The position numbers and the translations under genes are program-made. DNA of 64,000 nucleotides from Geosiphon pyriformis uo1 (taxonomy: Eukaryota > Fungi > Glomeromycota). The notes beneath the pieces are model-generated. The model was given only the letters and a program-made list of their open reading frames with translations. It ran no database searches and was not told where the DNA came from. Numbering within the stretch: the stretch's first letter is position 1; each line of letters starts with the position of its first letter. Below are positions 7,987 to 53,742 of this stretch, piece after piece. The DNA is taken from positions 1 to 64,000 of the forward strand of contig JAAOMT010000028.1 in NCBI GenBank assembly GCA_016748015.1, given 5' to 3'.

Positions 7987-8017
<31 letters not shown>

Positions 8018-17937: not shown

Positions 17938-19742
17938 ATGAAGAAGACTGCTAAAGTTTCTGGTTCTAATGATGGCTTCAAATCTGTTCTTCCAAGGAAG
18001 AAAAGGAAAGATGATGCTTTAAAAGATAGTTCCAGTGGTAAGATTGTTGGTTCTAAGATTCAGAATAGTCGTTCATGGAGTTCAGAGACTGGTGACACCA
18101 CTAAGTCTGATAGCATTGACATGGAGAAAAAATGTCTGGTGGAAGAAACTAGTTTCCAGCAAAAAAGTGGAAAAAAGTCTGATGGTATTAATATTGATAT
18201 GATGCCTAAAGATTCCAAAAGAGTTGTTATCAAGCATACTCTTGGAAAGCCTCTTGGCACTATTAACTTCGGCATGGATAATGATAATAATGATGATATT
18301 TTGGATGGGTCACTTTTTTTCCCTCCCCCTCTCTCTTTCAAACATATGGTGCAGGTTTCAGTCAGGAAATCTTTTACTCTGGATATTAATCTTGGGATGG
18401 TGACTGGCAAGTTGTCTCAGAAAAAGTTAGCTTATGTCAAAAAATTTTTTCTGGTGTAAATGGTTTTGGGGGGACCTCTACCCCCTCAAAATTTGGTGGA
18501 ATAATTCAGGCTTCTTTTACTTCTAATAAGCCAATGATGGCTGCAGCAAAATTAGCAAATGATTATAGTGTTGTGGTAAACACCAATCTTAAGCACCCTA
18601 ACAACAATCATATGAATCAGGCAATTGTGTTGAAAGAAATTCCAGTGAGAACATCTGTGGAGACTGTGTGCATGACTGTGTCTGAATTTGGGGTAATTAA
18701 AATAATCAAAATGCAACTGGTAGGTTTGTGGCAGAAAGCAATCATTGAATTGGAAGATTAGAATTAGGCTGATCTATTAGCTGCCAAATCATCCATCCTA
18801 ATTGGAAAAGATGTGGTACGAGTGGCCAGAGCTGACATTGACAAACAATCATGAGATGCTCAAGATAGTTTCAGAGCTTTGCTGTATACTCTCCCCATAG
18901 GAACTACTGCTCATGATTTGTGAGATTTTATTGGTTCTGTTGGTGGGAAGATCTGCTTCATTGATCATAATTCTGTCAATTATTTTCATGCCCACTGTGC
19001 TACTGTGTGCTTTAACTCTGAGTCAGATTTGGTTGGTGCTATGACAGTAACCCCAGTTATAAAGGGTGTTAGTCTTTGCTGGTCTCATCTCTCTTAAGCT
19101 TTATGTGCAGTTTGCAAAGGTTTTGGTCATATATCTCTTAGTTGTCAGTCAGTTAAGAATGCTGTGGCTCCAGGTGGCAGAAAAGCTCCTCTTTCAGCTC
19201 AAGACCAGTTCAGGTTGGCTAGAATTTATGCGAAAAAGTCTGCACCTATTTCTTGTTCTTTGGCTTTTGGTAGTAAAACTTGGGCATTAGTGGTTAGTGC
19301 TCCTCCTGTGCACACTTCTCATGATGCTGGTATGTCTCTTGGTTTCAATAAAATTAGTGAACCCCTTTCTCTGGTTGTAGACAACTTGGAATCATGTTTG
19401 GTTGGTATTGAAAACAGTCTTGTTAGTCTCATAGAACAGATTAGTGAGTTGGCTAAAAGATTGGAATCACTCATGCTGGCAGTTTCTCAGTCTAGTCCTG
19501 GATGTTAGCTGCTGGTGGCCCCCCCATTACAGAATCAAGGAGAGGATATAGTGATGGGAATGGGTTTGAGTGAAGCCACTAGTGATAAAATTGTTCTGAT
19601 TGTGGACTTGACAGCATCTTTTTATGTTGTTAAACTGGAAAAAATGTTGGATGGTCTTTTTAGGTCTGTGTTAAGCTTGTCTGCTTGCTTCAATAGTTTG
19701 GCTTTGGCTGATGGTGCCACTTTCCTAACTTCTTCTCAATGA
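17938..19742 (+). pseudogene. LINE B ORF1, degenerate
   Basis: AIVLKEIPVRTSVETV...SEFGVIKIIKMQLVGLWQKAIIE; CAVCKGFGHISLSC knuckle ~19105-19145; ends SSQ-TGA overlapping the ORF2 ATG. Confidence 0.85.
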
Positions 19743-21570
19743 GTGATCTTGTGTGAAGAATTACTACATGCAATATTAGAGGTATGAATATTCCTGCAAA
19801 ACAGAATAATATTGTATAATGGCATAAAAATATAGACAATTTGGTTTCGATTTTCATGAAAACAAAGTTAAGAAATAAGACTCGTCCTTGATTGGTTGAC
19901 AAATTTGATAATGTTTGCATGTTTTCTTTTGGTTTGGACTCTGGCTATGTGGGTGCTGGTATTGTGATTTTTATAAACAAATTCTTGACTAGACATGTGT
20001 ATAAAGTTTCTGAGGTTCTAAGTTATCTTCTCTGCATTAGGTTACTTTTCAAAAATAAACTTTCAATTTCGATTTTGGGGCTGTATGCTGGTGCCTTCTT
20101 GGCTACTCAATTTTCCCAGGCTGATAAGATCAATTTTTTGATTGTAAGAGCTATAAATGAATCTTCTTTTGTCATTCTTGGTAGTAACTTCAACAAAGAT
20201 GGTTCTTATAAGTGCATTAGTTTTAAAAAATGCCATAATTTGGGTTTGATTAATTCTTTGGGTGGGAGCTTCTTTGCTAAGACACCAACTTAGAGCAATT
20301 CTCAGAATGTTGCCAAGACAATTGATTATGTGTTTGTTTTCTCAAATCTGGTGAATGTAATAATGCAGTGCAATGTTTTCATTGTCAGTGAACATTTTGA
20401 TATGGATTACAAAGCTGTTTCTGTTTCTTTGGGTTTAGGTGGCCTTTTAGATGTGAGATTAAACTCTTTCTGCAAATAGGCAAATAAGGATCAATGGAAG
20501 TTCAATTTTAAGAGTGCTGATGAGATTAAATGGAATAATTTTAAAAGTTCTACACTAGCTAATGCTACAATGTTCTCAGATGAATTCACTGCATCTGTAA
20601 AGTTTTCGGATTTGGATGCTATATAGTGTGTTGTGTGCAAAGTTATAACTCTTTTGGTTAATGAAATTTTCAAAAAAAAGTGGTTCAGAAGGTTTAATAA
20701 AGTTTTTACCAAAGATTCTTCAAAGTTTCATAAATTGAAGCTTTTGGTTTCTAGGATTGTTAAGGCTTTACGTAAAGAAAATGCTGAAAACTTTGTTTAT
20801 TTTATGAAATATTGGAGTTCTGTGGATGATGTCAAGTTTTCTGTTGTTCAAAATCTGGTGGACTCTGGTGCTGGTTCTAATTGTGTTCATTTTGCTCTTT
20901 TTGGTGCTAAGAAGTCTTATCATGCTTTCAAACTCACTAAATCTCTAAGAGCTAAGGAAGCAAACATCAGATCTGCCATTAATAGGAGGATGGAGAGCTT
21001 TGAGATCAACAAGGGTCATATGATCAGAAGTGTGCTAGAGTGTCCTTTTCATAAAGTAATGCTGGACCATTTGGTGGTTAATAATAATCTGGTTTTGGAG
21101 TCTGATTTGGTTAAGTCTAAAGTGGATGTAATCATAAAGAGATAGACCAAAAAGTGTCATGTGGCTGATGATATCTCAATTGATTGGCACCATCAATATC
21201 AATCTTTGGAATATGTTTTTGATAAGGCCTTTTCTGGTGTAATATGCCCAATTGGTTTTGATAAATTCTTTGAGGTGGTTTCTGAATTGCCTAATGACAA
21301 AGCTGCTGGTTTGTCTGATATCTCAAACAAACTTTGGAAACATTGTGATAAATCTGTTCTGGATATGCTGTTGGTGATTTTGAACTTTTGTTTGTCTGGT
21401 GAATTGGTGTCTGGCCCTTGAAAAGAGGCCTGGGTCTTGATAATTCCTAAACCATATGAATGGAAGGGTGTTTTGACCAATACTTGTCCTATTGCTTTAA
21501 TCAAAATGGCTTGTAAGATTCTTTCTGACAGGATATTCTTGATATGTAGTGCTTTTGATGTCCTTTATGG
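19739..21570 (+). pseudogene. LINE B ORF2 part 1 (APE endonuclease to RT N-terminus)
   Basis: MSDLV*RITTCNIRGMN, FMKTKL, ILGSNFN, TIDYVFV, KAAGLSDI, TNTCPIALI. Confidence 0.9.
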
Positions 21571-22421
21571 TGTTACTCATAGAATATAAGAAATATAGTA
21601 TTATTAATTAATAGAGATTAGCCAATCAGATGTAGACGTAGTAAATGTGAAATTCCAAGATTTCTCTTAGAGGAATTGCAGAATTCCAGGAATTTCAGGA
21701 TTCTCTAACAAAAAATCGCAGAATTCCAGAATTCCAAGATTCCTCTCATCAGGAATCACAGGATTCCAGGAATTCCAGGATTTCTGTCACAAGGAATTGA
21801 GGAATTGAGGAATCTCAAATAGGTATATATAGCAATAGCATTAGAAGCAGAAAAAAGAGGAGAAGAACATTAAGAAATTTTAGCTTAGTTATCACAATTC
21901 TCAAATAAATAATTATTCACTTTATCAAATTCATTCTTTACTATCAACATGAAGTGTTGATAGTAACTGATACTTAACCATACTGGAACAATAGCTCTTA
22001 ATCATGGCTATTGATGGGATACTAACTTGCAAATTGTCTTGGCTGATTTCTTATTTTCTTTTTTATCTTTCTTTATTTTCTTTGTTGTCTACTAACTTGA
22101 TTAAAGAATTTACTCTTGGAGGACTTATGGAGGAATAAACTTGCTTAAACAATACTTACTCTTGGAGGACTTACGGAGGAACTGACATCAGGAAACAGTA
22201 CTGGTATACACTTATGAAAAATATCATACCAGGAGAATCATCAACTCTCAAGCTGAACAAGCAATTGAGGAAACTACTGATAAACTGTTATCATTGAATC
22301 TCTGTCCATTATACAAAGAACTCAATTGAAAAACCTTCAGATTATCATTGTCACCAATCACTTTGTGCACCAAGTTATGGGTTTGTTACTTATTTGACAC
22401 CCCAAAGATTCATCTGTAACA
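21571..22421 (+). repeat. E1 5' LTR (851 bp)
   Basis: TGTTAC...GTAACA termini; CCAAT box ~21622, GGAATTCC-type tandem array, TATATATA ~21824. Confidence 0.95.
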
Positions 22422-22483
22422 TTTGGTGCTCCCTATAAGATATAATCTTACAGAGAACTAGCACCAACAAAAACAAACCAAAA

Positions 22484-25400
22484 GTGGCAAAATCAGAAAA
22501 TATAGGAGCAAATCATTTAGGATTCGCAAAATCCTTATTTCAACAATACAGCCAATAATTAGGATTAAACAGTAATCATTACCCAGCCAAATCAGCTTTT
22601 AACTTCTATGTCAACGACAAAATTACTGAATGCTTAGAAGAAACAGTTAACATTGAAGCAGCAAGAGAAAACTTTTACACAGAATTATTCCAACACACCA
22701 ACTTACCAAGAAACTATAGTTTCACACTAATAATCAGAGAAATCAACCAAACTATTGAAAGATACACTCAACAACAATTTTTTATCACCTACGCAGATAA
22801 AGGCAAAGAAAGGTTACAAATACTAGCAGTAATGCCTAAAAAGATACAACTACCAACCTGAAAGAAACAAAGAATTGAATTCCCACCATATTTATCATAT
22901 CATCACACACTTGGAAGCACTATCAATATTTCATCTGCAGGCATGTCCACACCAAACGCAACATCAACATTTGGACAATTCATATTCCAAAGTAAACAAA
23001 GAAAAACAGAGTTATTAGGACCATATGGAGAATATTTTGAGAGATTTAAATCACAATCACCAACGCCATTAGGAATTTGATCACCACTATCTCTACCAGA
23101 TTTTGGAATCTCTGATCCATGGGAGGTAATGGAATCAGAAAAAGAAGAAGAAGAAGAAACTGAGGATCAAAAATTCACTTACCAGAACCTGATCACTGAA
23201 AACCCGGAATTTGAAACCCCGAATCTTCAGAACCAGCAAAATTTAAATTTAGTAAATTCAGAAGTTGAAACTCTGAATATTCAGACACCACCAACTCAGG
23301 ATAATCAAAACCCCAATCTAATTAATCAACCAAACTTACCTCCAGTAATTATTATCAATCAATCACTAATTGATATAATAGCTGAACCCATACAGCAGCC
23401 ACTTCAACTGCCACCTTAACAAAATCAACAACTGCTTCAACAGCCACCACAACCACCCAACTTAGATCCAATGGCCTATGCACCAATCACAAAACTGGAT
23501 AATTTTACCAGCAAAGAAGACGACACTCAAGTATGGCTAAATGATGTGAAAAAAGCCATCATAGTCAACGGATGGAATGACACCCAAGCAATGTAAGCCA
23601 TTCCCTATTTTCTCAAAGATACTGCTGATTTATGGTATCAGAGCTTGATCAATAAACCACAAGACTTCAATGTCTTCAAAGTGGAATTTTTAAGATACTT
23701 CAGCAACAATAACAGTATCAACCGCCTAGTTAATATATTCACTACCATGAAGCAAGGAGAAACTGAAGCAATTACCACTTATCTGGGATGCTTTCATAGA
23801 AATCTGCACCAAATCCAGGCAATTAACGTCAACTATTTTACAGCACCACAGATCCTCAACCAGTTTATCCATGGCCTGCACAACAGCATCTTGCAACATG
23901 TATGCCTATTGCATCCAGGCACCCTTCAAGATGCAGTTACACATGCCAGAGATTTCGAATTAGTTGAGTCTGAGACCAACCATGCCCAAGCCATTAATCT
24001 AGTGATGAACAGATCATTTGAATTGGACTCCAAATTGAAACAATTTAGTGATTCAATTAATCAGAAATTAGAAGGATACTTAACTGACAATTGCACAATT
24101 TATCAACCACCTCAACAATACAGCAATTCAAGAAACTACAATTGTTCCCAAAATCAAGCACATCTCTTAATATTGGCCAATCAGCAGTGGCAGCCAGAGA
24201 CGCATGTCTGCCACAACTATAGTAAACAAGAGCACATCAGAGCAAACTACAATGCTTATAACCACTAGTGATCAGGAAATCAATATAGAAACTCCGATCG
24301 CCAATTTCAAACTTTGAGATATCAACAAAATCAGGAACAATATCAAAACACTTACCTGTCAATGACGCAGCAGCCAATTTACCAAGCACCAGTATATCAG
24401 ACTCCAGTTTATCAACCATAGCCACCAGCAATATATCAACTACAGCCACCCATAATATATCAACTGCAGCCACAAGTAATCTATCAACCCCAATCAATTC
24501 AGACACCACCCCAAAATTCAGTTAATACAACATCAGACCACCCCAGACTTAGAATCACACAAAACTGAAGATCAGCAATGGTTGTCCATCAACTGATCCC
24601 CAGTTCTTCCAACTCACCATCAGGATTGCATTTGTGGAATTCGGGTACTAGTGCCACCCAAAATCCGAATTCCCAGAACTATTTAAGTCTACTGATTACT
24701 CCAGAAGACACCACCACCAACAATTTAGAATCCAACCAACAACAAACACTTACCAACAACATTCCACCAGCAACTGTTACCAATGACAAATTGCTTGCAG
24801 CCATCTTTCTCTTCGACTTGAAAGAAATGATCAAAATTTTATTATTCAGTGGAGCAGCTCTGGAAAAGAAGCCAATTACCACCATGTATACAGATGCCAA
24901 AATTGATGGCCATGCCATCAAACTGATCTTGGATAGTGGATTAGCTGGCAGCATCATAACAAGACAACTCATGGATCAATTAGGTTGCTGAGTTGACCAA
25001 GCTGCCAGTGCAAGGATCATCACAGCTGATAGAGCAATCAAAACTCCAATAGGCAAAATAGACAACCTACCTATTGAAATTAACAGCATCATGGTACCCA
25101 TTAAAGTTCTTGTGATGGAAGCCACTCAGTATCAAGCTCTTGTTGGAAATGATTGGCTATCCAAAACAAACACCATACTCGATTGAACGATGCAAGAGCT
25201 CCAACTGAGCCAAAACAGTCAACATACTTAAGCACCAGCAGTATGCAGCCACTTTAAACCAACCAATTTGCAACCACTAATCAAACTTGAGGAGGAAACA
25301 AAGAAACCAACATAGGAAGCATATTAGGTTTCATGGGCCGACATCGACCACAATGAACTGCTGCCCATACTTGTCTGGGATGAAGATGACCATGGAAAAG

Positions 25401-28400
25401 GAAAGCAAAAAGAAGAACATACCTGAGAAACCACTATTGGCACTTGAATTAATGACAACCAAAACGAGTTGTCACCTACACTAAGTTGGGAAGAAAAAAG
25501 AAAGGGAAAGAAAAAAGAAAACAACCTACCAGAGAAAACTGAATTAACAAAAGACACCACCAGTGGCTGGACAAGTTTGTATTTCATTCATGAGCCACTG
25601 CCACAACCACCACACATACTGCTTAAATACAAAAATTGTGAGAAAAAACTCTCTTCTATGGAAGCTTGGGTCACACCAGACAAAAATTACTGGATGCAAA
25701 CCCACTATTATTACAAGTCTTGCCACTGCAAATGGTATGACTACCCAAAAAGACAAGACAAATGGGACAACAAACCATGTTTCGCTTGTGGTGAGCAATT
25801 GTTCGACAAAAGAATGTGGAACAACATTCCTGGTTGAAAAGAAACATACAACACTTTGTGCCAGTACACAATTCTCATCAGCAACTGGGTGAGTTGAGGT
25901 ATGCCAATAACTGCCACTTGGCACTAAGCAATCTCTCACCTGGACGGATACCCACATGACAAAGATGAGATCTGGCAGATGGCGAACGCCAAAATAGAAG
26001 ACACTATGTCCAGCAAAATCTTGGAAATCAAGAACAATTCTCCAAAACCAGTCAACATTATTCTAGTCCCCAACTCAGATGCTTTTTTCGATATTGAGAC
26101 CAACCCAGAAGACTTCTACAAACATTATCAAAATTTAGTACCAACCAGAGAGGAACAGAAAGAGTGGTTAGCACAACTAAACACTCGATTATGTGACTAC
26201 TGTTTGATCTCATGTGACTTTCAATATTGTAATGAGTGTGATCTCATTTACAATCCACCAATCCACATAATCTACACAATTCCAGAGGAAGAAAAACCAA
26301 TCAGCAGCTGCACATTAAAATCAGAACCACTGTTTGATCCCGATTTAAACTCTGACAATGACAATAATGAAAACACCAGTTCCAGTTTTGTTCAAAATAG
26401 TGATAACAATGACAATGATTCAAACTCAGATTCAAACTCCAATTTAAAATATGAACAATATATCACAATTCTTAATCTGACCAGAGAATTGAAACTAAAA
26501 TAGTTTAGTAATAATAACGAAGGTATCATGCCAGAATGTGCACACAATAATGATGCTGGATTTAATCTGAGGTATCCAAGAAAAGATGCCATCAAATTGA
26601 AACCACATTCATGTATCTGTCTTGATTTGAAAATAGCACTGGAAATTCTGACAACAACAATGGTTCAATTAGCATCTAGGAGTAGTTTAGCGAAAAGAGG
26701 GATTAATATAAAAAGAGGAATAATTGACATTGGATATGTAGGAAATATCATCGCTATGCTACAAAATGACTCAGAAAAGACCTATATAATAGAGCCCAAT
26801 AAAAAGATAGCACAGACAATATTCCTGCCTCTGGTTAGAGTAGCTCAGTTAGTATCAGTAGAAAAGAGAGAGGAATTAGGAATAACAGCAAGAGAAATAC
26901 AGGGATTCGGATTGACAGGTAAAGTAGATATACCAGTCAATATAGCAAATGAAGAAATTGTTGACCAAGGGGAAATTATCTCAATGGGTCAAACAATTTC
27001 TATTCCACCATATGACCAGTACATGATAGGAATAAAGTGGGAGGTAAAAGAACAGAATCAGATTTTTGAAGCAGAACCAACCCTCTGTAAATCAAGAGAG
27101 ATTGGACTCATCAATCTCCATATACCAGTCAAAGATTACAGTCACATCAAAATTCCCATCTACAATAATACAGGAAATATCATAGTAATATCAGCTGAAA
27201 CCACCATTGAATACTTAAGCACTGAAATAGAGGATCAACCACCAAGCACCATTCTGGACTTTCCACAGCTTTGTGGATATGTCAATATTATATCACAAAC
27301 AATATATGGACAAAGTAAATGTTATTTGCTCCAACCAGAACAATTGGAACAAATAAACATAAGAAACTTAGATCCACTCCAACGTATGCAACTTAAAATG
27401 TTGCTCAACAATTTCAATGACATCTTTGCCAGCGAAAACGAGTTTGGCCAAACTAACATCATCTAGCATCAGATCAAGACTGGAGATACAATGCCAATTA
27501 AACAAAGAGCATACAAAGTACCACCAGCTAGCCACAAGATTATCCATCAAGAGATAAACCAAATGCTTAATAATAGGCTAATTCAGCCATCAATGAGCCC
27601 ATGGTCATTACTAGTGGTACTCATCTGGAAAAAAAATGGGAAAATCCACTTTTGTGTGGATTATAGAAAACTCAATAGAGTAACTCATGGAGATAGTTAT
27701 CTCACTCCACAGATCCAAAAATTATTTGATGCTTTCGGTAGAAACAAATAGTTTTTAACATTAGACCTGGATAGTAGTTACTGGCAAGTAGCCATGAATT
27801 CAGCCAACAAAGAAAAGACGGCATTTACCACCAGAGAAGGGAATTTTGAATTTAAAGTAATGCCATTTGGCTTAACCAATGCACCAGCCACTTTTCAATG
27901 GCTAATAAAAATTGTTTATACTGGCTTATTATGGAAATCAGTAGTTGTATACTTGGACAACACCAATGTATTCTCAAAAACATTTGATGATCATCTTCAT
28001 CATTTTCAACAAGTGTTTGAAAGACTAAGAAGAGCAGGACTAAAGTTAAATGCAACAAAGTGTTTTTTCGGCAAGACAGAACTAAAATTCTTGGAACACA
28101 TAGTCAGCAAAGACAGCATCAAAATAGATCCAGAGAAAATAGAGATAGTAAAAAACTTTCCAGTACCAACCAATATGACAAAACTGAAATCATTCTTGGG
28201 ATTTGCCAGCTACTATTGATGTTTTATCAAGAACTTTTCCAAGATAGCACAGCCACTCAACCAACTGCAAACCAAGAATACAAAATATGAATGGACAGAA
28301 AGTCAACAAGAAGCTTTTGATATTCTGAAAAGAAAGCTCATTCAAGCTCCAGTACTGATCTATTCAGATCACAGCAAACCATTTATCATCACCACCGATG

Positions 28401-28753
28401 CATCCGGCCAAGCACTAGAAGCAGTACTATCTCAGAGAGGACCAAATGGCAGAGAATATTCAGTAGCATATGCCAGCAGAGGTTTAACACCAGCCAAAAA
28501 GAACTATAGAACACTGAAACAAGAACACTTAGTAATATACTGGGCAGTCATGAAATAGAAAAAATACTTGAGCCAGAAGTTTGAAGTATACACAGATCAC
28601 AAAGGATTAACATCACTTCAAAAACAAGAATTTGGAGATGGAAGACAGTCAAGATAGAAAATGGTACTCACACCATATAATTATACTATACATTATAAAA
28701 AGGAAAAAGACAATGGAAATGCTGATGGTTTGTCATGAATGAGACAAATATAA
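22484..28753 (+). pseudogene. E1 ORF1 polyprotein: Gag-PR-Cys-rich-dUTPase-RT-RNaseH (~2090 codons, one frame, point-mutation stops)
   Basis: ORF-track fragments 23129, 23645, 24578, 25469, 25979, 26528, 27491 and 27794 share one frame. Motifs: LILDSG, dUTPase motifs, CVDYRKLN, MPFGLTNAPATF, YLDN, TDAS, ADGLS. Confidence 0.93.
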
Positions 28754-28815
28754 GAACATTTCAACCCAAAAATATAACAAAACCAAAACATTACCAACAA
28801 TAAATATAACAAAAG

Positions 28816-30198
28816 ATAAACATACAAAGATATTAACAACTGCAACATTATATAAACACTCAACAATTTAAGAAGAATTTATCTCAAATGGAACGAAAGA
28901 GTATCAAACAACAATCAAAATATTTTATCACTCACCAAAATATACTTTATTGAAAAAATAGAAGAGATCTAAAGCAACCAACCAGAGTAATTACAGAGCC
29001 AAAAAAAGAAACAATATTATTCAACATGCACTCAAATCCAACAGCAGGACATTTTCACAAAGAAGCAACCATGGAAAGAACCAAAAAGAGATACTATTGG
29101 CCATCAATGTACCCAGACATCATTCAATATGTTCAAAATTGTAATGCTTGTCAGCGAAAAGGAGGAACAAAACCCAGTGAACTATTAAGACTAATCAAAG
29201 TGAGACAACCATTTGACTATATTGGAATTGATTTAGTCGGACTATTAACAATCACCAGCAGAGGAAACAGGTACATAGCAGTAACTATGAACTATCTCAT
29301 TAAATGGCCAGAGGCAAAAACAATTCAAAGAACGGATGCAAAATCCGTTGCCAAATTCATTTATCAAGATTTAATTTGTCGACATAGATGTCCAAAGAAA
29401 TTATTATCAGACCAAGGAACTCATTTTGTGAACAGAACATTAACAGAATTGAGCCAAAGATTCGGAATTAAGAGACCACTATCATCACCATACCATTCAC
29501 AAACCAATGGATTAGTCAAAAGATTCAACAGAATATTGTGTAAAGCAATAGCTAAGCTCAGCCAAGAAAACCAGAACAATTGGGATTTGTTGATACCATC
29601 AGTACTATTTGCTTATCAGACAATGAAGCAAGATACTACACAAACAACACCATTTGAATTAGTATATAGTAGAACAGCAACACTACTAGTGGAAATGAAA
29701 GTCAGCACATACTCAACTGAACCAATAACAGAAGAGAATTTCAAAAACACATTGTTGAGAAGAACATATGACTTAATGAAAACATTAGAAAACAAACAAC
29801 AAAAAGCAGCTGATAACATACAAAAGTCACAAAAGAAACAAAAAGAAAGACATAATAACCAACTATCAGATAAACCAGTTGAATTCAAGATTGAAAACAA
29901 AGTACTACTACATCGTACCAAAGCGAAAAAACAATGGAATGGAAAATTTGACCTCAAATGAGATGAACCATTTTATATAGAAAAAATTCTAGGAAATGGA
30001 GCTTACAAATTAAGATTAAATAACAAAATCTTGACCAAAGCAGCACATAGAAATTGACTGAAATCATATTACCATATAGTATCATCATCCACTAGTAATA
30101 TTCTACAATTAGGAGTACAGAGAATACTAGTCCAACCAGATGAGATTCCACAAGATCTGGAACCAATCATTATTATTAACAACAACACGTCCAATTAA
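28816..30198 (+). pseudogene. E1 ORF2 integrase (HHCC, DDE core, C-terminal GPY/F-like region)
   Basis: MHSNPTAGHF...CNAC; IGIDLVG; LLSDQGTHF; QTNGLV. The start has decayed to ATA (ATG in E3). Confidence 0.92.
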
Positions 30199-30221
30199 TT
30201 AACAAAAGAATATATAAGAAC

Positions 30222-30881
30222 ATGGTCAATGTGACAAAAAAGATCAGAAAAATGGAAATTACAGACAATATCTATTCACTAGTCCAACAAATTTTTCAAT
30301 TAATCCAACACCAAGAGATGGAAATTACAATCAATTAACAAACCATTCATTACAAAAATACAGCAAAGATACCACAAAACAAAGCATAGAAAAGACTTGG
30401 AAATGTTGTTGACAAGATCATAACCAAGATAAAATTGGCCATAAAAAAACAACCAATAGTCAGATTACACCAAAAACTTACCAGAGAAACTTGGACTTGG
30501 TGAATGCAACAATTTCCAAAAAACTATTGTCATTTCCACTTGGAACAACACGTAAATATCCAGAATTTGTACACTGACAAAACAAAATGGTTATTTGACA
30601 CAACAATACTGAGACAACTGAAACAATTTATGGGAAAAAACAATCTAACCAGACAAGCTCGAGCTATTTACCGGCTATATATGGAATTTCAAGACTGATC
30701 AGAAATCTTACTCAACACAGCAATGAATACAGTTACGAGTAATCAATTAGAAAAAATGACCAACACCCAATTTGAAGAACTACAAACTGAAATAACACAA
30801 GTAATACTCGAAAAAGAAGTTCAAGAAATAATTCAAGAAGGGGAATTAAAGAAATTAGATTTCGATGGAGCTCAATATTAA
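30222..30881 (+). pseudogene. E1 ORF3, unknown 220-codon protein
   Basis: ATG to TAA of 660 nt with internal transition stops; homologous to E3 52175-52834 and E2 34179-34898. Confidence 0.8.
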
Positions 30882-30894
30882 AAGGAGGGAATAA

Positions 30895-31768
30895 TATTAC
30901 TCATAGAATATAGAAAATATAGTATTATTAGTCAGTAGAAATTAGCCAATCAGATATAAACATGATAAATGTGGAATTCCAAGATTCCTTTCAGAGGAAT
31001 TGCAGGATTCCAAGAATTTCAGGATTCTCTAACAAGGAATTGCAGGATTCCAGAATTCCACTCATCAAGAATCACAAGATTCCAGGAATTCCAGGATTCC
31101 TGTCACAAGGAATTAAGGAATTGAGAAATCTCAAATAGGTATATATAGCAGTAGCATTAAAAGCAAGAAAAAAAGAAGAAGGACATTAAGAAATCTTAGC
31201 TTAGTTACCACAATTCTCAAATAAATAATTATTTATTCTATCAAATTCATTCTTTACTATCAACATAAAGTGTTGATAGTAACTGATACTTAACTATACT
31301 GGAACAATAGCTCTTGATCATAGCTATTGACAGGATACTAACTTGCAAATTGCCTTGGCTGATTTCTTATTTTCTTTTTTATCTTTTTTTATTTTCTTTG
31401 TTGTCTACTAACTTGATTAAAAAATTTACTCTTGGAGGACTTATGGAAGAATAAACTTGCTTAAACAATACTTACTTTTAGAGGACTTATGGAGGAACTG
31501 ACATCAAGAAACAGCACTGGTATACACTTATAGAGGATATCATACTAGAAGAATCATCAACCCTCAAGCTGAGCAAGCAATTGAGGAAACTACGGTTTCA
31601 GGAAACTACTAATAAACTGTTACCATTGAATCTCTGTCCATTATACAAAGAACTCAATTGGAAAACTTTCAGATAAAATACCTTCAGATTATTATTGTTA
31701 CCAATCGCTTTGTGCACCAAGTTACAGGTTTGTTACTCACTCGACATCCCAAAAACTCACCTGTAGCA
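30895..31768 (+). repeat. E1 3' LTR (874 bp)
   Basis: Direct repeat of 21571-22421; termini decayed to TATTAC...GTAGCA. Confidence 0.95.
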
Positions 31769-31772
31769 ATGG

Positions 31773-33230
31773 GGACAATTTCTCAGTTTTAAAGGATATG
31801 ACAACTCAATCTCCTATTTTTATAATTGGTTCAGTGATAAAAGATGCTTTGGAAAAAAACCAAGAGCTCTGGCTGATTCTGTAGGACATGCAAAAAGCAT
31901 ATGATTTGGTTGGCTGGAAACATCTCAAAAATAGTTTAATTAGGATTAAGATGTGTAGCAAATTCATTCATTTTTTTGGCAACATTCACAATGATTGTAC
32001 CAACTGGATTATAACAGATTTTGGTTTGACAGATGGTTATCATGTACATGATGGCCTGAATCAAGGAGAAGTTTTCTTTTCTCTTTTGTGGTGAATATTT
32101 TATGATCCTTTGTTGTGTGAAGTCAAGTATTAGGAGAGTGTATGTAGATATAGACTGAATTCTTATTTTATTTCCAAGAATGGTCATGCCAAATCTTGGG
32201 CTGGGCATTCTTCCTTTTTTGCTGCTGGTGTTTTTGTTGATGATACAATTTAGATTAGTAACAGTTAAAGCACTACTCAACATATTCTCAATGTTGCCAG
32301 TGAATTTTTTCAGATCAATGATATCTCAATTAACAATAACAAAATAGTGACAATTCCTATTAACAGCAGGGTCAGCAATCTTTTTCTTTCTATTAGTGGT
32401 TTGCCTATTTTAGTTGCCAAAAAGGAGGAGTTTCATCAATACTTAAATATTTTTCTTTCAACTGAGGGTCTTTCTAAACCTAGTTTAGTAAGGGCACATT
32501 CAAATGTTCGTTTTTTCACTAATTTGGTACTGAGAAAAGCTGTCTCGGATAAACAGTTCTTGTATTTGGTTTTGGCAGTTCTTCATCCTATTGTTAGCTA
32601 TAGAACACAGTTTAGCTTTGTTTCTGTTGGTGTGTACAACAAATGGAATGCTTTAATTTGCAAGGGCCTAAAACTAAAATTTGGTCTTCCACTGGACTTT
32701 CCTAATGATACAATTTACCACCCATCTTTTTATGGTTTAAAGTCTTTTTTGCAGTGTCAATCTAAGGGCAAAGTTGCTTTACTTGTTAGTTTTGCGAACT
32801 CTGGTAGAATTTTGGGGCATTTGTTTGGTCACAGGTCTCATAACTTACAGGTCCTGTGTTGGCAATCTGTTTATCCATTGATTTTCTCTGCTTGTATTTA
32901 TGTTAATGTTTCTAATAATTTCTTAGCTGGTATGGTTCACATTTTTTTTGACTACAAGTTGTCTTTGGGCTGGCTCTGTGGCCAGTTTTTTTCAGTTTTA
33001 CAGTGGGGTACCTATGTCAATTGTTCTTGGCAAGTCTTTGTTTTGCAAGTTTTTATTTTCTCTCCGTTATAGCATTGCCTTTGTGAACCAGCTTTATGAT
33101 TGTAATGGTATTGTCTTTAGCTGGCACACCTTTAAGTGATAGAAGAGGCTGGACTCTTGTGGTCCAGTTCCCAAATGGTTTGAACTTTCTGTTGTGTTTC
33201 TTGTGGCTTCTTATTCTTTTCTATTGGCAT
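31773..33230 (+). pseudogene. LINE B ORF2 part 2 (RT core)
   Basis: DMQKAYDLV, GLNQGEV, VFVDDTI; continues VLYG|DNFSVLK in frame across E1. Confidence 0.92.
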
Positions 33231-34210
33231 TGTTACCAAAGGTTTTTGGTCTCTTCTTAGCTCTTGTATGTTTGTTGTAATGTTGTTAATTTACGATTAT
33301 GGGAAGTGTTTGAACCTCTGATAACTGAATTTATCTTCAAATTATCTCTTATAATTTGAACTGCTGGACTTATAAGTGGAATGGCCAATTCCGTGCCAGT
33401 TACTTTGTATAGTTATGTTGTAGTAAATGTCAACTCTTTCTTGGAAATTGCTCATCTAAAAGCTCACTAAAAATGTGTAGTTACTTTGCTGTGAAAGTCA
33501 ACTCTTTTACAGGAATCTCGTTTATAGGCTACCCTAATAATTGTAATAAGAAAAGAAAAAAAAAATAAAAAAAATGTAAAAGAAATAGGATTTTATCAAA
33601 GAAAACGTTTTCTATTCAGGCCTGGAGTTACTAACAGTTTACTGAAATTAGTAGCTAATCAATTTCAAAATGTTAATTGGGTTTTGAAGATTTTTCTAGT
33701 GCAATAATTTCAAGAATTTGGTTTTTCGAATTATTTAATATTTATTTCTTTTTGTGTGTGTAGGAATGGTTTTAAGTGATAAATCCAAAGTAAGATACAT
33801 TTTCTCGAAAAGAGAAGCTTTTCTTTTATACAACTTGTTATAACACTATTCTATGCACTTGAACTTTGCTCTTTTCTACAATTTTGCTGAACTAAAGATA
33901 CATTTTGGTGAATTACAAGTTATTTCTGTGAACTATTAGATGTTTCGGTAAACTATCAATTATTTCAGCAAATTTCTACAAATTTCGGTGAACTTTTGAA
34001 TGTTACATATTTCGGAGTATTGCATAATTGATCATCACACTTAGGTTACATTTATGTTATATACAAATTGGGTTATTAGTTAAATGATAATTTCAGACAT
34101 TTTGCTAATGTAATAAGTAATAATTTGAAACAATAATATATGCTAATTAATGATAAGATTTATAAGGGTAATTTTATGCTAAACAATATCTCTAATTTTG
34201 TCTGATAACA
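33231..34210 (-). repeat. E2 3' LTR (980 bp)
   Basis: Direct repeat of 42076-43056; TG...CA termini. Confidence 0.95.
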
Positions 34211-34898
34211 TAATCTTTTTCTCAAGACTGAGCTCTGTTGAAGTCCAAGTACTGTCTGTGATTTTCAGATAATAATCCAAAATTATTGAAGAAATTTGGT
34301 CTGAAAATTGTTGAAATTTCAGTTTTGTGAGCTTTTCAATATATTGAATCTTCAAAAGTTGTAATATTGGGTTTTGTAAGACATTTTCACAGATGTGAAA
34401 TAGGTCATAAAGTCTAAGAGCAGCTCTTAATTTATAATGACTGTTTGTAGATCCAGCTGTTGTCTTAAATTTGTTATGGAGTTGTTTCCGAATAGCTTTT
34501 TTTGTAAGGTTTGCTGCTGTAAGCTTCCGTTTTTGTTTGTGAAGTGTTTTTCCAATGTAGAAATATCTATATATTGGAATATAGTCGTAATTTTTTTCAT
34601 TAAGACACAGTTGAAGTTTTTGTTGAATAGTAGCATTCAGTGGAATACTAATAGGAGTGAGCATTAAGTTTTCTTTTAAAGCAAGCTTTAGAAGTTCTGA
34701 CAGGTGAATTCCAGAATAACTTCTTGTGTTCTTCTTATATGGATGATATTTTTGTGCATTTGGGGCTAAATTTGTAACTACTTCTGTTTGAGTATAATTA
34801 ATGTGGTTTCTAGTAACAGTAATAGATAATTCGGGTATTGTTTTTAAAGCTAACATTAGTTTTTGGGATAATTGTTGAATGTTTTGAGGAATAGTCAT
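34179..34898 (-). CDS. E2 ORF3, unknown 239-aa protein, uninterrupted, reading into the 3' LTR
   Basis: Open ORF in the track; aligns by eye with E1/E3 ORF3 (NIQQLSQKL~NIYSLVQQI; YRYFYIGK~YCHFHLEQ; RAALRLYDLF~RAIYRLYMEF; IEKLTKLKFQQF~LEKMTNTQFEEL). Confidence 0.75.
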   Translation of the reverse strand: MTIPQNIQQLSQKLMLALKTIPELSITVTRNHINYTQTEVVTNLAPNAQKYHPYKKNTRSYSGIHLSELLKLALKENLMLTPISIPLNATIQQKLQLCLNEKNYDYIPIYRYFYIGKTLHKQKRKLTAANLTKKAIRKQLHNKFKTTAGSTNSHYKLRAALRLYDLFHICENVLQNPILQLLKIQYIEKLTKLKFQQFSDQISSIILDYYLKITDSTWTSTELSLEKKIMLSDKIRDIV

Positions 34899-35017
34899 TA
34901 TAAGGGATTTGAAAATAAAAGAAAATTATTTTTGGTGTATGGGTTTTTATGTTATTTTTGTTTTGTATTTGTGATATTGTTTCTAAATTATAAGGAGATA
35001 ACTATAATAAATTTAAG

Positions 35018-36403
35018 TTAAGTGTTCAAATTGGGAGGTTGTTCAATAACAACTATTGGTTCTAAATTTTGGAAAATATCTTTGGGATTAATTAAAGGGG
35101 AATGTGTACCAATTTGTGGAATTAATGGTTCAGGATTGTGTCTGGAATTATAGTGTTTCAAACAATCTCCATGTGCAACTTTTGCTAGGATTTTGTCATC
35201 AAGTCTTAGCTTGTATGATCCATTGCCTAGGACTTCATGGATAAAGAATGATCCATCCCATTTATTTTCAAATTTCTTACTCCATTGTTTTTCAGCTTTA
35301 GTTCTGTGTAAGAGAACTTTGTTTCCAATTTTAAATCTATTGGTAACTGGAGGCAATTTGTTGTCATGCCGTTCTTTTTGTTGAGCTTGAGAGTGTTCAA
35401 TATAGGTGGCTGCTATTTGTTGTTTTCTTTCCAACATGCTAAGCAGAGTGTAGGCTCTTCATTGAAGTGTTTCCTGGAAATTGTTTTTATCAATTGGTTG
35501 TGCTGGGTATGTTTCTACTGTGAAACTAATTGGTAATGTTGCTGTCCTTCCATAAGTTAAATCAAATGGTGTGTGTTTTGTGGTATCTTGTTTTAGTGTT
35601 TTGTATATTAGTAACACTGATGGAATAAAGATATCCCATTTTTGCTCAAAATCGGTTGAGACTTTGGCTAATAATTCACACAATGTTCTGTTAAAACATT
35701 CTACAAGTCCATTTGTTTGTGAATGATAGGATGAAGATAATGGTCTTTTGACATTAAATTGTCCACAAATTTCTTGGATTAAATTGTTCACAAAATGTGT
35801 TCCTTGATCAGATAAAAGTTCTATTAGGCATCCATGTCTATAAATGATGTCTTCGTAAATAAAGTTTGCTACTGATTTTGCATCTGCTCATTGAATGGCT
35901 CTGGCTTTAGGCCATTTGGTGAGATAGTCTACAGCTACTGCAATATAATGGTTTCCTTGGTTTGTGATAAAAAGTGTTCCAACTAAATTGATACCAACTT
36001 GGTCAAAAGACTGTCCAACTTTGATTGGGTTTAAAGGTTCTGTAGGGCAAGTTCTTTCTTTTTTTTAACAACTATCACAAGACTTAATGTATTTATGAAT
36101 GTCTTTTTTTATTTGAGGCCAAAAATAATATTCTAGTGTTCTCTGGTTGGTGCTGTTTTTTTCTAGGTGTGCTGATGAAGGGTCTGAGTGCATGTTATAT
36201 AAAATGATTTCTTTTTCATGTTCTTGTATTAATCTGAGCGGACTGTCTGGGTTTCTGAAGTTTTGATAATAAATAATGTTGTTGTGTAAGAAGTATTGTT
36301 TGACTTGTTGTTATAATCAGTGTTTTTCATCTGAAAACCAATCTGTTGGGATTGTTAATGTCTCCAGATATTGTTTAAGATTGTTGTAGTTTTTGGGGTT
36401 CAT
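35018..36403 (-). pseudogene. E2 ORF2 integrase
   Basis: Starts MNPKNYNNLKQYLE; MHSDPSSAHL, VGINLVG, LLSDQGTHF, QTNGLVE, KWDGSFFIHEVLGNGSYKL. Confidence 0.92.
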
Positions 36404-36449
36404 TGTTTGTTGTTTTGTTGTTAATTCAAATGGGTGTTGTTTTTATGTT

Positions 36450-39400
36450 TTAATCTTGCTTCATTCTTGAGAGACAATCAACGTTGATGTGGAGTTTTCC
36501 TGGTTTGTGGTGTACAATATATTAGTAGTTGGCTAAAAATCCTGTTCATTGGGTTTGTTTTGCATTCAGTTAGATGTTTTTGTTCTGAAGCCATTTGAGT
36601 CCAATATTATCAGTGATAATATCAAATTTTTTAGGCCTGAGATAAAGGTTAAAGTAGTGTAGGGCCCAAATTATGGCTGCTGTTTCTAGTTCTGTGGCAG
36701 GGTAGTTTTTCTCGGCTGGTTTTAATGTTCTGCTCACATAAGCAATTACTCACTCATTTCCATTGTCGCCTAATTGTGATAAAATGGCACCAAAGGCAGT
36801 GTAAGAAGCATCTGTAGCTAGTCGAAATCGGTTACTGAAATCTGGATAGGCAAAAATTGGAGCTGTTGTTAGTTTTTTTTTGAGAATTTCAAAAGCTTTT
36901 TGGTGTTCTTCTGTCCATTTGTATTCGACATTTTTAGTAGTAAGCTGATTGAGGGGTTTTGCAATTTCTGAGAATCCTTTGATAAATTTTTGGTAATAAG
37001 AAGCTAATCCAATAAATTTTCTCAATTCTGTGGTATTTCATGGAGTCTTGAAGTTCTTGACAGTGCTGATTTTTCTGGGGTCTGGTTTAATTCCATCTTT
37101 GCTTACAATGTGGCCAAGAAAGACCAGACTTGTTTTTCCGAAGTAGCATTTTTTGATGTTTAGTTTCAATCTTGCTTTCCATAATTGTTGAAAAACTTCG
37201 CACAAGTGTTTTAAGTGTAATTCAAAAGATGGTGAATAGACATTAGTATTATTGAGATAGACAACTACTGATTTCCAAAGGAGGCCTTTGTAAACAATGT
37301 CCATGAGTTTTTGGAATGTTGCTGGTGTATTGCATAATCCAAAAGACATTATGTTGAACTTGTAGTTTCCTTTTTGTGTGGTGAATGCTGTTTTGGAGTG
37401 ATCTTTGGGATCCATGGCAACTTGCCAGTATCCGCTTTCTAAATCTAATGTTGAAAAGTATTTGGATTTTCCAAGAACATCTAACATGTCATCGATTCGG
37501 TGAAGAGGGTAGGCATTTCCAATGGTGACATTGTTGAGTTGTCGATAATCAACACAAAATCATATTTTTCTATTTTTCTTCTTAACTAGGACTACAAGTA
37601 AGGTCCATGGACTCATTGATGATTGAATAAGCCCATTGTTAAGCATCCATTATACTTCTTCTCAGATAAATTGGTGACTTTCTGGAGCAACTCAGTAGGC
37701 TTGTTGTTGTCTTGGTTTGGCATCTCCTGTATAGATTTGGTGTTGAACCAAATCAGTTCTTCCTAAGTCATTGTTGTTTTCAGCAAAGATATCGGCAAAT
37801 TCTGCAATTAGCTCTTTAAACTGGCTCTTCTGTTGTGGTTCAAGTTGTTTTATGTTGATTCGAGATAGTTTTTCTATAACAACATGGTAGTTTTTAGAGC
37901 TGGGCTTTGGGTTGATTTTTGGTAGTAAATGTCCAATAATTTCAGAGAAATTGGGGACTGTTTGGAGTAATTCTTGTTGAAAGATATTACTGTGAATAAC
38001 TCCAATTTCTAAGTTATTTAATAAAACTACAGAAAAATTGTTGGAATTGTAAAAAGTAACTTGGATTTTCTTTGTTCCTTCTGGAATATAAATGTTTGGG
38101 ATTGAGATATTATGTTCTAAGCAGACTTGTTTATTGGATTCAAAAATTTGTTGTGTGATTGTTGACTTTGGGCAGGTGTAGATTTCCAGATGTTCACTAA
38201 AGAGTAAAATAGTAATTGGTTGTGCAAGTCGTAGAATCTGGTGAGATTCATTTTGTTCATTAAGAGTTATGTTTACTGGAACTGTGAATCATCCAGTTGA
38301 ACCAAAACCTTGGGTTCCTCTTTCACTTTTTCCCAATAGTTCTCTTTGATTGACTAATTGTAAACCCAAAATGTTAATTAAGGGTAAATAAATAGCTTGG
38401 ACAATTTTTTTGGCATGTTCAATTTTAAATGGCTTGTCAGTTTCATTTTGGAGTATTATTGTTATGTCACCAGTATATCCTGCATCAATTATTCCTCCTC
38501 TAACATTGATTCCTTTGCTTGCCAGAGAGAACTGGAAGGCAATTTGAATTATTGCTTCTGGTGAGATTTTGAGAGCAATTTTGAGGTTAATTTTTGTGAG
38601 AGATTTGGGTTTAAAAATAAGAATATCCTTGTCTGGATATCTTAGGTCATATCCAGCATCAATTTCATGTACTTTTTCGGGTTTTATTCCTTGTCCATTG
38701 TTGTTGAAGTATTTGAGTTGTAAGGCAGGCTGATTTTCAATGAGATAGATGAGTGTTGTTTCAATTTCTTCTATTGCTTCAGGTTTTCCAAATTCAATTT
38801 CATATTCGTCATTTTTGCTGAGTAATGGAATGCTAAGGGCATAGCATTCAGGACACCATTGTTTGTTGCATGGCATTATACACTCCTCACATAATTTAAT
38901 GTTCATTTGCTCTAATCATTGAATTTGAGCTTCTTGAATTGAGTAGGTGTGACTTGCAATTTGGTGGTATACTTTGACTTCATCTTCATAATCGAATCCA
39001 GTTAATTCCAATGTATATTCAATATATTTGGCTTCCTTCATTTGAAGGACATCTTCTTTGGTTTCTCCATTAATTAAAACCATGGCAAGTTTGTAGATCA
39101 TTTCGGCATCATGGGAGTAGTAATAAAGTTTGCTAAGAGTGCTGTTATATGCGGCATTGAAAGGTGTTCCACATTTTACTTTTTCTGCAATAGAAAAAGC
39201 ATATTGGCAAGTTTGATCACAGACTCCTCCTCTAAATGCAACATCAATCCAGTCACATTCATCAGGAAGCTGCTTTCCACAAGTAAGACAGGGTGTTCTA
39301 TCCCATTTTCTGCTTCTTTTGATCAAGTGGTCTCATTGTTCTTGATGGCAGGCCTTGTAGTAGTAGCAGGTATGACTTTCATATTCTTCTTTAGGTGAAA

Positions 39401-42030
39401 TACAAGCTTTCATTGACAATAGTTTCTTGTGGCAGTCCTTACATTTAAGGAGAATGTAGGGGTGTTGTTTCCTTGGTTCAGGCTTTGAGTAAGGGATATT
39501 CCATTCAGGAGTTTCAGGTTCAGAATGTGAAGTAAAATGTTTTTGTTCAGTTTCCTCAGCCCAATTGGACATTAATCCAAGAGCCATGAATGTTTTGATT
39601 ATTGGTTTTTCTTCTTCTGGTTCGAATTCAAAAGCTGGGGCTTTTTCGGAGTGTTTGTTGAATGTATCACAAATGGCAGGTACTCGGGCGTGTTGTTTTT
39701 GGTAGGGAATTGTTAACTCTTGTGTCTCCCAATTCAGATTAGCATTGGCTTTTTGGAGCCAATTGTTTTTGACAAGAGCTTGGTATTGGGGAGCATCCAT
39801 GACCAGAACTTTGACTGGAATGGTAATTCCATCAATTGTGAATGAGAAGTTGTCAATCTCTCTTACTGGAGTCTTTTTCATGCCATCAGTAGTGACAATG
39901 ATTGTCTGAGCTGGTTGGTCAACATTTCTCTTTAGCTGCTGCATCAATTGATATGTAATGATGCTTCCAGCAGATCCACTGTCTAGGATCAAGTGAATTG
40001 GCTTTCCTTCTACTTTAGCTTCTGTGTACATTGCAGTAATGGCTTTTTGCTCATTAGCCGCTGCATTGCTAAGCAAAAATGGTAATTCATTTGCTTCAAA
40101 TTTGAAAGGAAATATATCTGAAAGATTGGCTTTTTCAGCAATTCTGGCTGGTGGGATTGTGGTAGAAATATAGGAAGGGTTTTGTTGTTGTGTTGCAGCT
40201 CTACTTTCTGAGAATGCAGTATGGTGAAAATCCTGTTCTTTAGGTATTATAAGATAGCTAGGTTGAGTATGATAATGGGTGGATCTTGGCTGAACTGGAT
40301 TTCAGAGAATCAATTGGTTGTTCGAATTGATTCTATTGTTGTTTACTTGGTATTGGTTTTGTGATGTAAATTGATTTTGCGGAATCAATCTTTGAGCAGG
40401 TATTTGATAATGTTGTGTGAGTGGTTGTTGGTATTGCTGTTGAATTGGCTGTGGAGCGGGCTGATAATAGTTATTTTGGTATTGGGATCTTGGTAGATAG
40501 TAAGCTGGTAGTGGTAGTTAATAATAAGATTGCTGTGGTAGAGGGTAACGTTAATTACTCTTATTTTGTTGGTCTCATTGTAGCTTTCTGCAATCTTTTT
40601 TCCAGTGGCCAGGAATTTTACAGTAATGGCAAATCTGAGACTGGTTATTAGAAGATGATATAAAGTTGTTTTGATTCTGTTTTTGGGGTGGTTGATATCT
40701 TTGGGGTTGCTGTTGTTGTTGGTTAGTGAAATAGTTTTTGACTTTCTTTGCAAGTTGGTCAATTTTTTCTTCAGCTGCTGAGCTGGTTTCTCCAATGGTT
40801 AAGTTCACAAGTTTTGTACAATTGACTTCTTCTATGGCCATTTCATATCTTTTTGCATGCTGAATAGCAGAGTTTAAATCTTCTGGCACATGTGAACGAA
40901 CCTTTTTAATCAGTTTATCTTTTAAGCCAGTGATAAATTAATCCAAGATTTGAGCATCAGAATAATAATCAGTAGTTTCAAGTTGGCGAATTTGTTTGAG
41001 AAGTTTGTTAAATTTCTCAATATAAGTCATGACAGATTCAGAGGGTTCTTGTTTGATATTGTGAAAACAATTCTAAGAAGGCAGTTTTGAAAGCTGTCCA
41101 GTCATTAAAAGGAGTGATCAAGTTTTCAAACCATTTGCCTGCGGTTCCTTTAAGAAAGTAGGGAATTGTTCTTAACATTCAGGCAGCATTCCATCCATTT
41201 GCATCTCCAGCTTTAGTAACTTGGTTGAGCCATTCTTGAGGACTGGTCTTAATGTTTTCTTCATTGAATTCAGGGATTTTTGCAATGTATGCTGTCATTT
41301 CATCTTCTTCATTTTTACTGTCTATTTATTCTTTTTCAGATATTTCAGAGTCATTTTCTTCGTTCACTGCTGTCTCAGAGTGTTCACTTTGATTTTTAGC
41401 TAGAAAGTCAAGGAGATTAGAACTAGTTTGAAGAAGTTTTTGTTGTCTGATGGGACTTCTGGATAATGTAAAATCTTCTAGTCTTGTAAATCGATTTAAG
41501 GGTGAATTAGGTGTTTGTGCTTGTGCAAGTGAAGCTGGAAAAGATGTGATAGTAAGTGGAAGTTTTGAACTAGTTCCTTGTTCAGGTGTTTGTAAGTGTT
41601 TGGCAGTTGTTTTTGGTAGTATTGGAGTATTTGGGGTGGTTTTTGAGTATTGCTTCAATTTTTGTTTGCCTTTGTTGCTTGTTTCTGTCTCTGATTCAAA
41701 ATTAAAAGAGTATTTAGACTGTACTGGGTATTTTTCTTCACAATATTCAATAATGTTAAAATTAAGTTCTTGAAAGTAGGTAGCAAGTGTTTTACTGTTC
41801 AGGTTTTCTGTTTTCAATTGTGAATAGTGCACTAAATTATTGTAGAGGTTGCTTCTAACTTCTGAAATGTTTTAGTTTCCAAAAAGATAATTGTTGATGT
41901 GGTTTTCAATGTATTGGTATACTGATTTTTTGACAACTTCAATTCCGTCTGGAATGTTGAATCTTTGCTTGTAGTGTGTGTAAATTGACTGGTAATACTC
42001 TAAAGTTACTGTGTTTGGTGTGGTCGCCAC
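36450..42030 (-). pseudogene. E2 ORF1 polyprotein Gag-PR-Cys-rich-dUTPase-RT-RNaseH
   Basis: CHYCKIPGHWKKDC knuckle, LILDSGSAGS, DAGYDL/GGIIDAGYTGDI/RGTQGFGSTG, LDLESGYWQV, ATDAS. One frame from ~40889 to 36450, with small indels in gag. Confidence 0.93.
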
Positions 42031-42075
42031 TTTGAATTTGTTGTTGCTGTGTTATTTCTGTGGGAGAGCACCAAA

Positions 42076-44436: not shown

Positions 44437-44498
44437 TTTGGTGCTTTCTGTGAAGTATAATCCTACAGAGAACCAGCACCGACAATACCAAACCAAAA

Positions 44499-50703: not shown

Positions 50704-50766
50704 GAACATTTCAACCCAAAAATATAATAAAACCAGAACAATACCAACAGAAAAATACAACAAAAG

Positions 50767-52150: not shown

Positions 52151-52174
52151 TCCATCAAAAAAATATATAAAGAC

Positions 52175-52834: not shown

Positions 52835-52847
52835 AAAAAGAGAATAA

Positions 52848-53738: not shown

Positions 53739-53742
53739 ATGT

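Follow-up and report, generated by a model that had tools for sequence, protein, structure and literature searches.

The window, a 64,000-nucleotide stretch of a Geosiphon pyriformis contig, contains three full LTR elements within one decayed LINE: E1 (21571-31768, + strand), E2 (33231-43056, - strand) and E3 (43547-53738, + strand). Their Pfam matches follow the order gag, aspartic protease, dUTPase, reverse transcriptase (RT), RNase H and integrase, and the LTRs, the gag, the protease-RT-RNase H-integrase order and the polypurine tract (PPT) place the host elements in Ty3/Gypsy. In E1, the 5' LTR (21571-22421, TGTTA...TAACA), which carries eight copies of a GGAATTCC-like 8-mer in U3 ahead of a TATA box at 21824, is followed on the + strand by the primer-site region and a decayed gag-protease-dUTPase-RT-RNase H frame with a stop after RNase H (22422-28753, end approximate), the integrase as a separate decayed ORF (28816-30198, start approximate), ORF3 (30222-30881), the conserved DNA motif GAGCTCAA with the PPT (30867-30894) and the 3' LTR (30895-31768), which is 9.2% diverged from the 5' LTR; a 4-nt target duplication, ATGG, flanks the element. 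E2, on the - strand, consists of a 5' LTR (42076-43056), an internal region (35018-42075; gag-protease-dUTPase, a second protease-like stretch, RT-RNase H and an integrase in its own ORF, which ends at 35018), ORF3 (34179-34898) and a 3' LTR (33231-34210), with LTRs 6.8% diverged and the target duplication ATGC. E3, on the + strand, has its 5' LTR at 43547-44436, decayed gag-pol and integrase at 44437-52174, ORF3 at 52175-52834 and its 3' LTR at 52848-53738, the LTR pair being 6.2% diverged. The LINE (endonuclease and RT) occurs in two copies, one at 1-3661 (-) and a second, interrupted by the LTR elements, at 19730-21525, 31770-33222 and 43065-43382 (+). A calponin-homology domain exon at 60743-61411 (+) probably belongs to a host gene, and the regions ~5600-10000 and 55000-58500 are very AT-rich (8-18% GC) with ATT/AAT microsatellites.

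The LTR pairs, 6.2-9.2% apart, differ by 192 transitions versus 5 transversions with the rate highest at CpG, a pattern from which we infer decay by cytosine deamination. The sequences flanking E3, GCAT (43543-43546) and ATGT (53739-53742), do not match as a target duplication, unlike those of E1 and E2, and given this mismatch E3 is possibly a recombinant. The primer-site regions of E1 and E3 (22422-22480 and 44437-44500) contain TTTGGTGCT, with the complementary AGCACC ~40 nt later, and the two could pair as a hairpin. On the - strand of E2 (37695-38288 and 39336-40301) an aspartic protease precedes the dUTPase, a second, spumavirus-protease-like stretch (E 4e-5) lies between dUTPase and RT, and a long Cys-rich region between protease and dUTPase has no domain assigned. 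The RNase H frame stops at the same place in E1, E2, E3 and the metagenomic locus L001 (see below). The break falls at 28753-28816 in E1, ~36300-36500 in E2, ~50700-50770 in E3 and 772-800 in L001, unlike the usual single Pol. Since the RNase H frame ends there and the integrase, which has a Met in E2, E3 and L001, is an ORF of its own, ORF3 is literally the third ORF; the spacer between integrase and ORF3 measures 23 nt in E1, 119 nt in E2 and 316 nt in L001.

A further ORF behind the integrase of each element, reaching the PPT or the 3' LTR, was the core of the original prediction, and a homologous frame is indeed present in all three. It stops at the PPT in both E1 and E3 and, in E2, crosses the PPT to end 32 nt inside the 3' LTR. 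The E2 frame (34898-34179, protein P0001) is open over 239 aa as stated, and those of E1 and E3 share the predicted length of 220 codons, 219 and a stop in each, with no indel between the two. Not mentioned at the time were 4 internal stops in E1 and 5 in E3, owing to which both copies are decayed and missing from the list of open reading frames. In the comparison of E1 with E3, frameshifting indels are found in the spacer and LTR beside ORF3 and none inside it. ORF3 of E1 is 66% identical to that of E3, and both are 22-23% identical to that of E2 (pairwise blastp E 6e-9 and 2e-8). The proposed homology of the E1/E3 and E2 types was borne out by profile-profile comparison, with a probability of 93.5% and a score of 52.3 over 186 columns; 60 column shuffles scored 18.5 at most, and the reversed profile 13.5. 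As had been noted, the E2 LTR does not align to the E1 and E3 LTRs (self-blastn). The conserved motif blocks listed earlier could be found again with two changes: at the E of E-K-[LM]-T, 7 of 8 groups of ORF3 proteins have a G instead, and the R-A-x2-R block is interrupted by stops in E3. ORF3 is a real gene of three dUTPase-bearing Ty3/Gypsy elements, located between the integrase and the 3' LTR.

Subsequently, we compared substitution rates of E1 and E3. For ORF3, dN was 0.20 and dS 0.56, giving a dN/dS of 0.36 (bootstrap 0.24-0.52; 0.22 to 0.44 across kappa 1 to 6), a value that is not near 1 and that, coming from this one pair, includes post-insertion decay, which raises the ratio. In 2000 permutations (null mean 0.87) so low a ratio never occurred. 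The same comparison gave 0.36 for gag, 0.32 for RT, 0.73 for integrase and 0.98-1.08 for LTR pseudo-frames, and reading ORF3 itself in shifted frames gave 0.71 and 1.95. This shows that ORF3 has been under purifying selection between E1 and E3. Identity along the two elements is uneven: between E1 26500-30900 and E3 48000-52850, RT and integrase are ~88-90% identical and gag, ORF3 and LTR 60-80%, which suggests that the pol module was exchanged between subfamilies.

At its 3' end ORF3 overlies a DNA motif, GAGCTCA with the PPT, that is common to all groups seen as DNA and is read as G-A-Q-Y-stop in E1 and E3 and, in another frame, as E-L-x-L-E-x-x-I-M-L in E2 and L001. Because the PPT is read in differing frames, the acidic tail is a by-product of this cis element, and we rejected it as a protein feature. 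That the last ~10 codons track a DNA motif, together with the broken frames of E1 and E3, could suggest that ORF3 as a whole is non-functional sequence or a chance frame kept only as DNA. For the body of the gene this reading is already contradicted by a dN/dS well under the ~1 of the LTR, by collinear protein homology at 22-40% over eight groups, by the open frames of E2 and L001 and by a confidently predicted fold, and we give it almost no credence.

The family is abundant in Geosiphon. The E2 ORF3 had 191 homologues; of the best 120 listed, 119 were named Geosiphon pyriformis and one was the window's own, and all 94 matches to the E1 ORF3 reading bore the same species name, which belongs to a fungus of the Glomeromycotina. 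Among the ORF3 matches listed (the best 120 in two of three listings) we found no named species besides Geosiphon. Searched with an ORF3 profile, 1.84 billion representatives yielded 113 matches. Of the 10 that were looked up, 8 were gene models from Geosiphon and the other 2, P0245 and P0248, were unnamed proteins from ENA or JGI; these two metagenomic proteins join the E2 type on long branches in the tree. Assigned by best match to chosen representatives, 335 ORF3 proteins formed 8 groups that are mostly 22-40% identical, two E2 groups being 67% identical. Only Y, G, N, F and L residues are unchanged throughout the 8 groups, and they include none of the acidic or His residues that would hint at an enzyme. 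Among 26 gene models in which the two are fused, 25 have the integrase ahead of ORF3, and many divergent ORF3 copies were seen in X1 (three DNA runs examined). A metagenome scan confirmed 3 ORF3 loci out of 349 pattern matches. L001 has the order RT-RNase H, integrase, open ORF3, PPT and an LTR start TGTTAC; L002 has the integrase end, another open frame of ~130 codons (398-811) lacking a Pfam match, and ORF3; L003 holds the ORF3 tail and LTR only. No relatives of ORF3 were found in viral contigs or phages and none of the E1 integrase in viral contigs. In the strict sense ORF3 is therefore no orphan, given the hundreds of annotated Geosiphon copies, the metagenome relatives and look-alike unnamed clusters from Mucoromycota.

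The env-like position of ORF3 calls for a comparison with envelope proteins. The predicted lack of a transmembrane helix was confirmed in all 10 proteins scanned (19-residue hydropathy maximum 0.27-1.29); a furin-type motif R-x-[KR]-R was present in none of them and the Cys count was 0-3. In the signal-peptide region, considered by hydropathy scan only, the N-terminal 8-residue maximum was 0.77-1.95. No family of Pfam, PHROGs or NCBIfam reached its cut-off for ORF3. DUF1016_N (PF17761) matched 2 of 41 members weakly, at best with 14.6 bits (E 0.037, P0001 109-193) versus a Pfam cut-off of 32.8 bits. FtsQ came up in 9 of 41 members (best E 0.00046), which we attribute to chance in a set of near-copies, and we also regard the only PDB sequence match, to importin-5 (E 0.016-0.057), as coincidental. 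Since there is neither a membrane-spanning stretch nor a curated family, ORF3 is not Env, and the earlier statement that it is no fusion glycoprotein stands. Nothing but the location, between pol and the 3' LTR, speaks for an Env or Env remnant, and the absence of a membrane-spanning stretch and furin motif, the few cysteines and a compact soluble model leave this reading with next to no likelihood. The earlier description as a selected accessory protein is upheld by the low dN/dS, the significant cross-subfamily homology and the lack of a curated family; of the three outcomes named as contrary to it, namely dN/dS near 1, no profile match between E1/E3 and E2, and a match to an Env or transposon domain, none was observed. 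Hence ORF3 is a selected, non-Env accessory gene in an unusual three-ORF fungal Gypsy lineage. Of the roles suggested for it earlier (silencing suppressor, targeting factor or transactivator) none stands out clearly, and weak hints from profiles and structure lean towards a DNA-binding regulator, as set out below.

Additional ORFs after pol were reviewed for plants (PMC7264820), rotifer dUTPase elements carry ORF3s after pol (PMC5408684), and PMC2864245 contains fungal dUTPase elements and a figure legend that reads 'add. ORF with unknown function'; the accessible portion of PMC3248453 names no such ORF. The ORF3 described here shares with these additional ORFs (aORFs) of plant, rotifer and fungal Ty3/Gypsy elements its position between pol and 3' LTR, its strand and its conservation across copies, and the dUTPase is also present in the rotifer and fungal elements. 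The features of a sense aORF downstream of pol (aORF-3S), namely sense orientation, location between pol and the 3' LTR and recurrence across copies, were found in all three window elements, L001 and L002. It differs from the plant env-like ORFs in having no membrane-spanning stretch, from the rotifer ORF3s, which belong to a GDSL or DEDDy enzyme family, in having neither, and from sense aORFs of Ty3/Gypsy elements, compared by description only, in following a free-standing integrase ORF. Accessory ORFs are a known kind, and the ORF3 protein family appears undescribed. A literature search whose scope excluded most subscription papers found none on Geosiphon, Gypsy and dUTPase or on arbuscular mycorrhizal (AM) fungi and an additional ORF, and none of the titles listed dealt with the ORF3 family; the element list in the supplement of PMC2864245 may bear on the novelty of the family.

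Furthermore, we modelled the protein. An earlier model, built on 21 close sequences, was of low quality (pLDDT 47), and fold searches with it were uninformative. The AlphaFold2 model of P0248 from 41 sequences reached pLDDT 79 and pTM 0.64, with a helix at 7-20 and strands at 24-29 and 34-38 (pLDDT ~72-75), a loose linker and an all-helical core with a long C-terminal helix, in which ten-residue blocks over residues 81-200 have pLDDT 87-96. On this confident model, ORF3 would be a soluble helical protein with an N-terminal helix and beta-hairpin followed by a helical core. The predicted helices include 100-119 (Y-x-Y-F-x-[IL]-G), 126-141 and, after a G-K-T-N turn, 146-160 (R-L-Y-x2-F). Among 48,161 solved chains none reached Z 5; the best match was a designed protein (Z 4.5). 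The DNA-binding domain of KorB (1r71; Z 3.7, rmsd 5.2, 95 of 114 residues, model 81-207), Spo0J (1vz0; Z 3.4, rmsd 5.1, 93 aligned) and ParB (6s6h; Z 3.2, rmsd 3.1, 59 aligned) were among the 50 best matches listed, tied with unrelated helical proteins; the ParB idea predates this search. Foldseek gave no match to the model at E<=0.001 in the PDB or viral structures. In the ESM Atlas, where likeness is expressed as feature scores only, two unnamed Mucoromycota 'hypothetical protein' clusters (63 and 98 members) headed the matches to the ORF3 core with 0.95 and 0.94, followed by closterovirus coat (PF01785) with 0.93 and, lower, by DUF6192 (0.91), of which the one genome searched contained no member, and by a family of translation repressors (0.90). 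Neither the Pfam matches nor the viral-structure matches listed include the closterovirus family, and no match to the whole E2 protein reached 0.9.

Several weak hints converge on a ParB-like helix-turn-helix. DUF1016_N (the YhcG N-terminus) aligned to the ORF3 core in one register, with an HH probability of 3% from 7 sequences (21.3 versus a maximum of 16.9 in 100 shuffles) and 6% from 91 sequences (21.65 versus a maximum of 20.9 in 80 shuffles). When 1226 bacterial ORFs including 84 of DUF1016 were ranked with the ORF3 core profile, DUF1016 proteins, which are mutual relatives, held 21 of the 25 top places (best 9.3 bits) over decoys that are not matched helical proteins, and 32 of 91 forward versus 1 of 91 reversed sequences scored above 3 bits. 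DUF1016_N is in turn similar to the ParB helix-turn-helix (profile probability 85%). Compared directly with 29 ParB helix-turn-helix domains, the ORF3 profile remained at shuffle level (10.75 versus a shuffled mean of 10.97). With DUF1016_N and ParB/KorB/Spo0J, ORF3 as modelled shares helix order and spacing (an aromatic-x-[IL]-G helix, a helix, a G-K turn and a helix ending in Y-x2-F); it differs from them in falling far under the family cut-offs, in its eukaryotic retroelement setting and in its extra N-terminal helix and beta-hairpin. ORF3 is not filed under either family.

We tentatively favour, at somewhat short of an even chance, the view that ORF3 binds DNA through a ParB/DUF1016_N-like helix-turn-helix and regulates the LTR of its own element. 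The protein would be translated from its own start codon, enter the nucleus and, with 146-160 as putative recognition helix, bind the U3 repeats, raising LTR transcription or keeping the LTR unsilenced, and the ORF3 protein of each subfamily would be matched to its own LTR. The candidate target is the near-palindromic 8-mer upstream of the TATA box, present in 8-9 copies in U3 of E1 and E3 versus a maximum of 5 in 12 shuffles and absent from the E2 and L001 LTRs. The E2 LTR repeat barely exceeds shuffles (5 versus a maximum of 4), and that of L001 is marginal too. The ORF3 dS between E1 and E3, nearer that of gag (0.52) than that of the adjacent integrase (0.18), is counted in favour of an LTR regulator; the spread of ORF3 pI values (5.4 to 9.8) and the lack of a conserved nuclear-localisation motif count against it, and so does the fact that U3 repeats are commonly host-factor sites. 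As element-encoded non-Env proteins acting on the DNA or RNA of their own element, foamy virus Tas and VANC of VANDAL transposons resemble the proposed regulator in function only. The same holds for CERV of C. elegans Cer1, a regulator encoded beyond Gag-Pol (PMC10309623), and for the nuclear GENE23 protein of maize Grande, a non-Env accessory protein cited in PMC7264820. The bolder version of this idea, a fungal LTR lineage with a bacterial-type ParB/DUF1016_N helix-turn-helix as a sequence-specific transactivator or anti-silencer co-evolving with the LTR repeats, we judge unlikely. Were it true, the lineage, with its dUTPase and free-standing integrase ORF, would be a 'complex' retroelement of fungi, and the transactivator could help explain the LTR burst filling 41% of the Geosiphon genome.

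A doubtful but serious alternative to DNA binding is an RNA-binding accessory factor serving export, packaging or translation of downstream ORFs in the manner of Rev or CERV, or shielding the RNA from small-RNA silencing. Integrase and ORF3 are separate downstream ORFs, suggesting processed or alternative transcripts; CERV is a precedent in an LTR retrotransposon (PMC10309623); the Atlas features include the closterovirus coat and translation repressor families, and a filamentous virus capsid chain appears at Z 3.7 in the structural listing. AM fungi direct methylation and small RNAs at transposable elements, as described for Rhizophagus (PMC8647823). Against an RNA-binding role, ORF3 has no conserved Arg-rich motif and no RNA-binding family, closterovirus coat protein is absent among the 50 listed viral-structure rows, and, within an ORF3 pI range of 5.4 to 9.8, the metagenomic members are acidic (5.4-5.9). 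The location of ORF3 directly 3' of a free-standing integrase ORF, the absence of a chromodomain on the scanned integrase pieces and the nesting of all three elements, which have ATG-like target ends, in a single decayed LINE would also suit a cofactor of integrase by which the pre-integration complex is tethered to chromatin or other repeats. We consider this quite unlikely, as E1 and E3 diverge far more in ORF3 than in integrase (dS 0.56 versus 0.18) and repeat nesting is expected where LTR elements make up 41% of the genome (41.2% according to PMC11952901). Very unlikely, in our estimate, is a role as a non-enveloping structural component of the virus-like particle or as a protein for its movement in the coenocytic hypha. 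The env position and the modelled soluble, helical form with a long C-terminal helix agree with it; against it, ORF3 matched neither families nor folds of capsid, matrix or movement proteins.

Plants and animals have supplied most of the known accessory genes of LTR retrotransposons, the majority of which lack an assigned function. The function of ORF3 is open to direct testing thanks to its natural open copies, a model of high confidence, the divergence of its eight groups and the repeats that are candidate targets. Should ORF3 prove to regulate its own LTR or free it from silencing, this would reveal how a transposon family expands in a fungal lineage in which repeats are methylated and targeted by small RNA. 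Moreover, several hundred Geosiphon gene models annotated as 'hypothetical protein' are explained as transposon genes.
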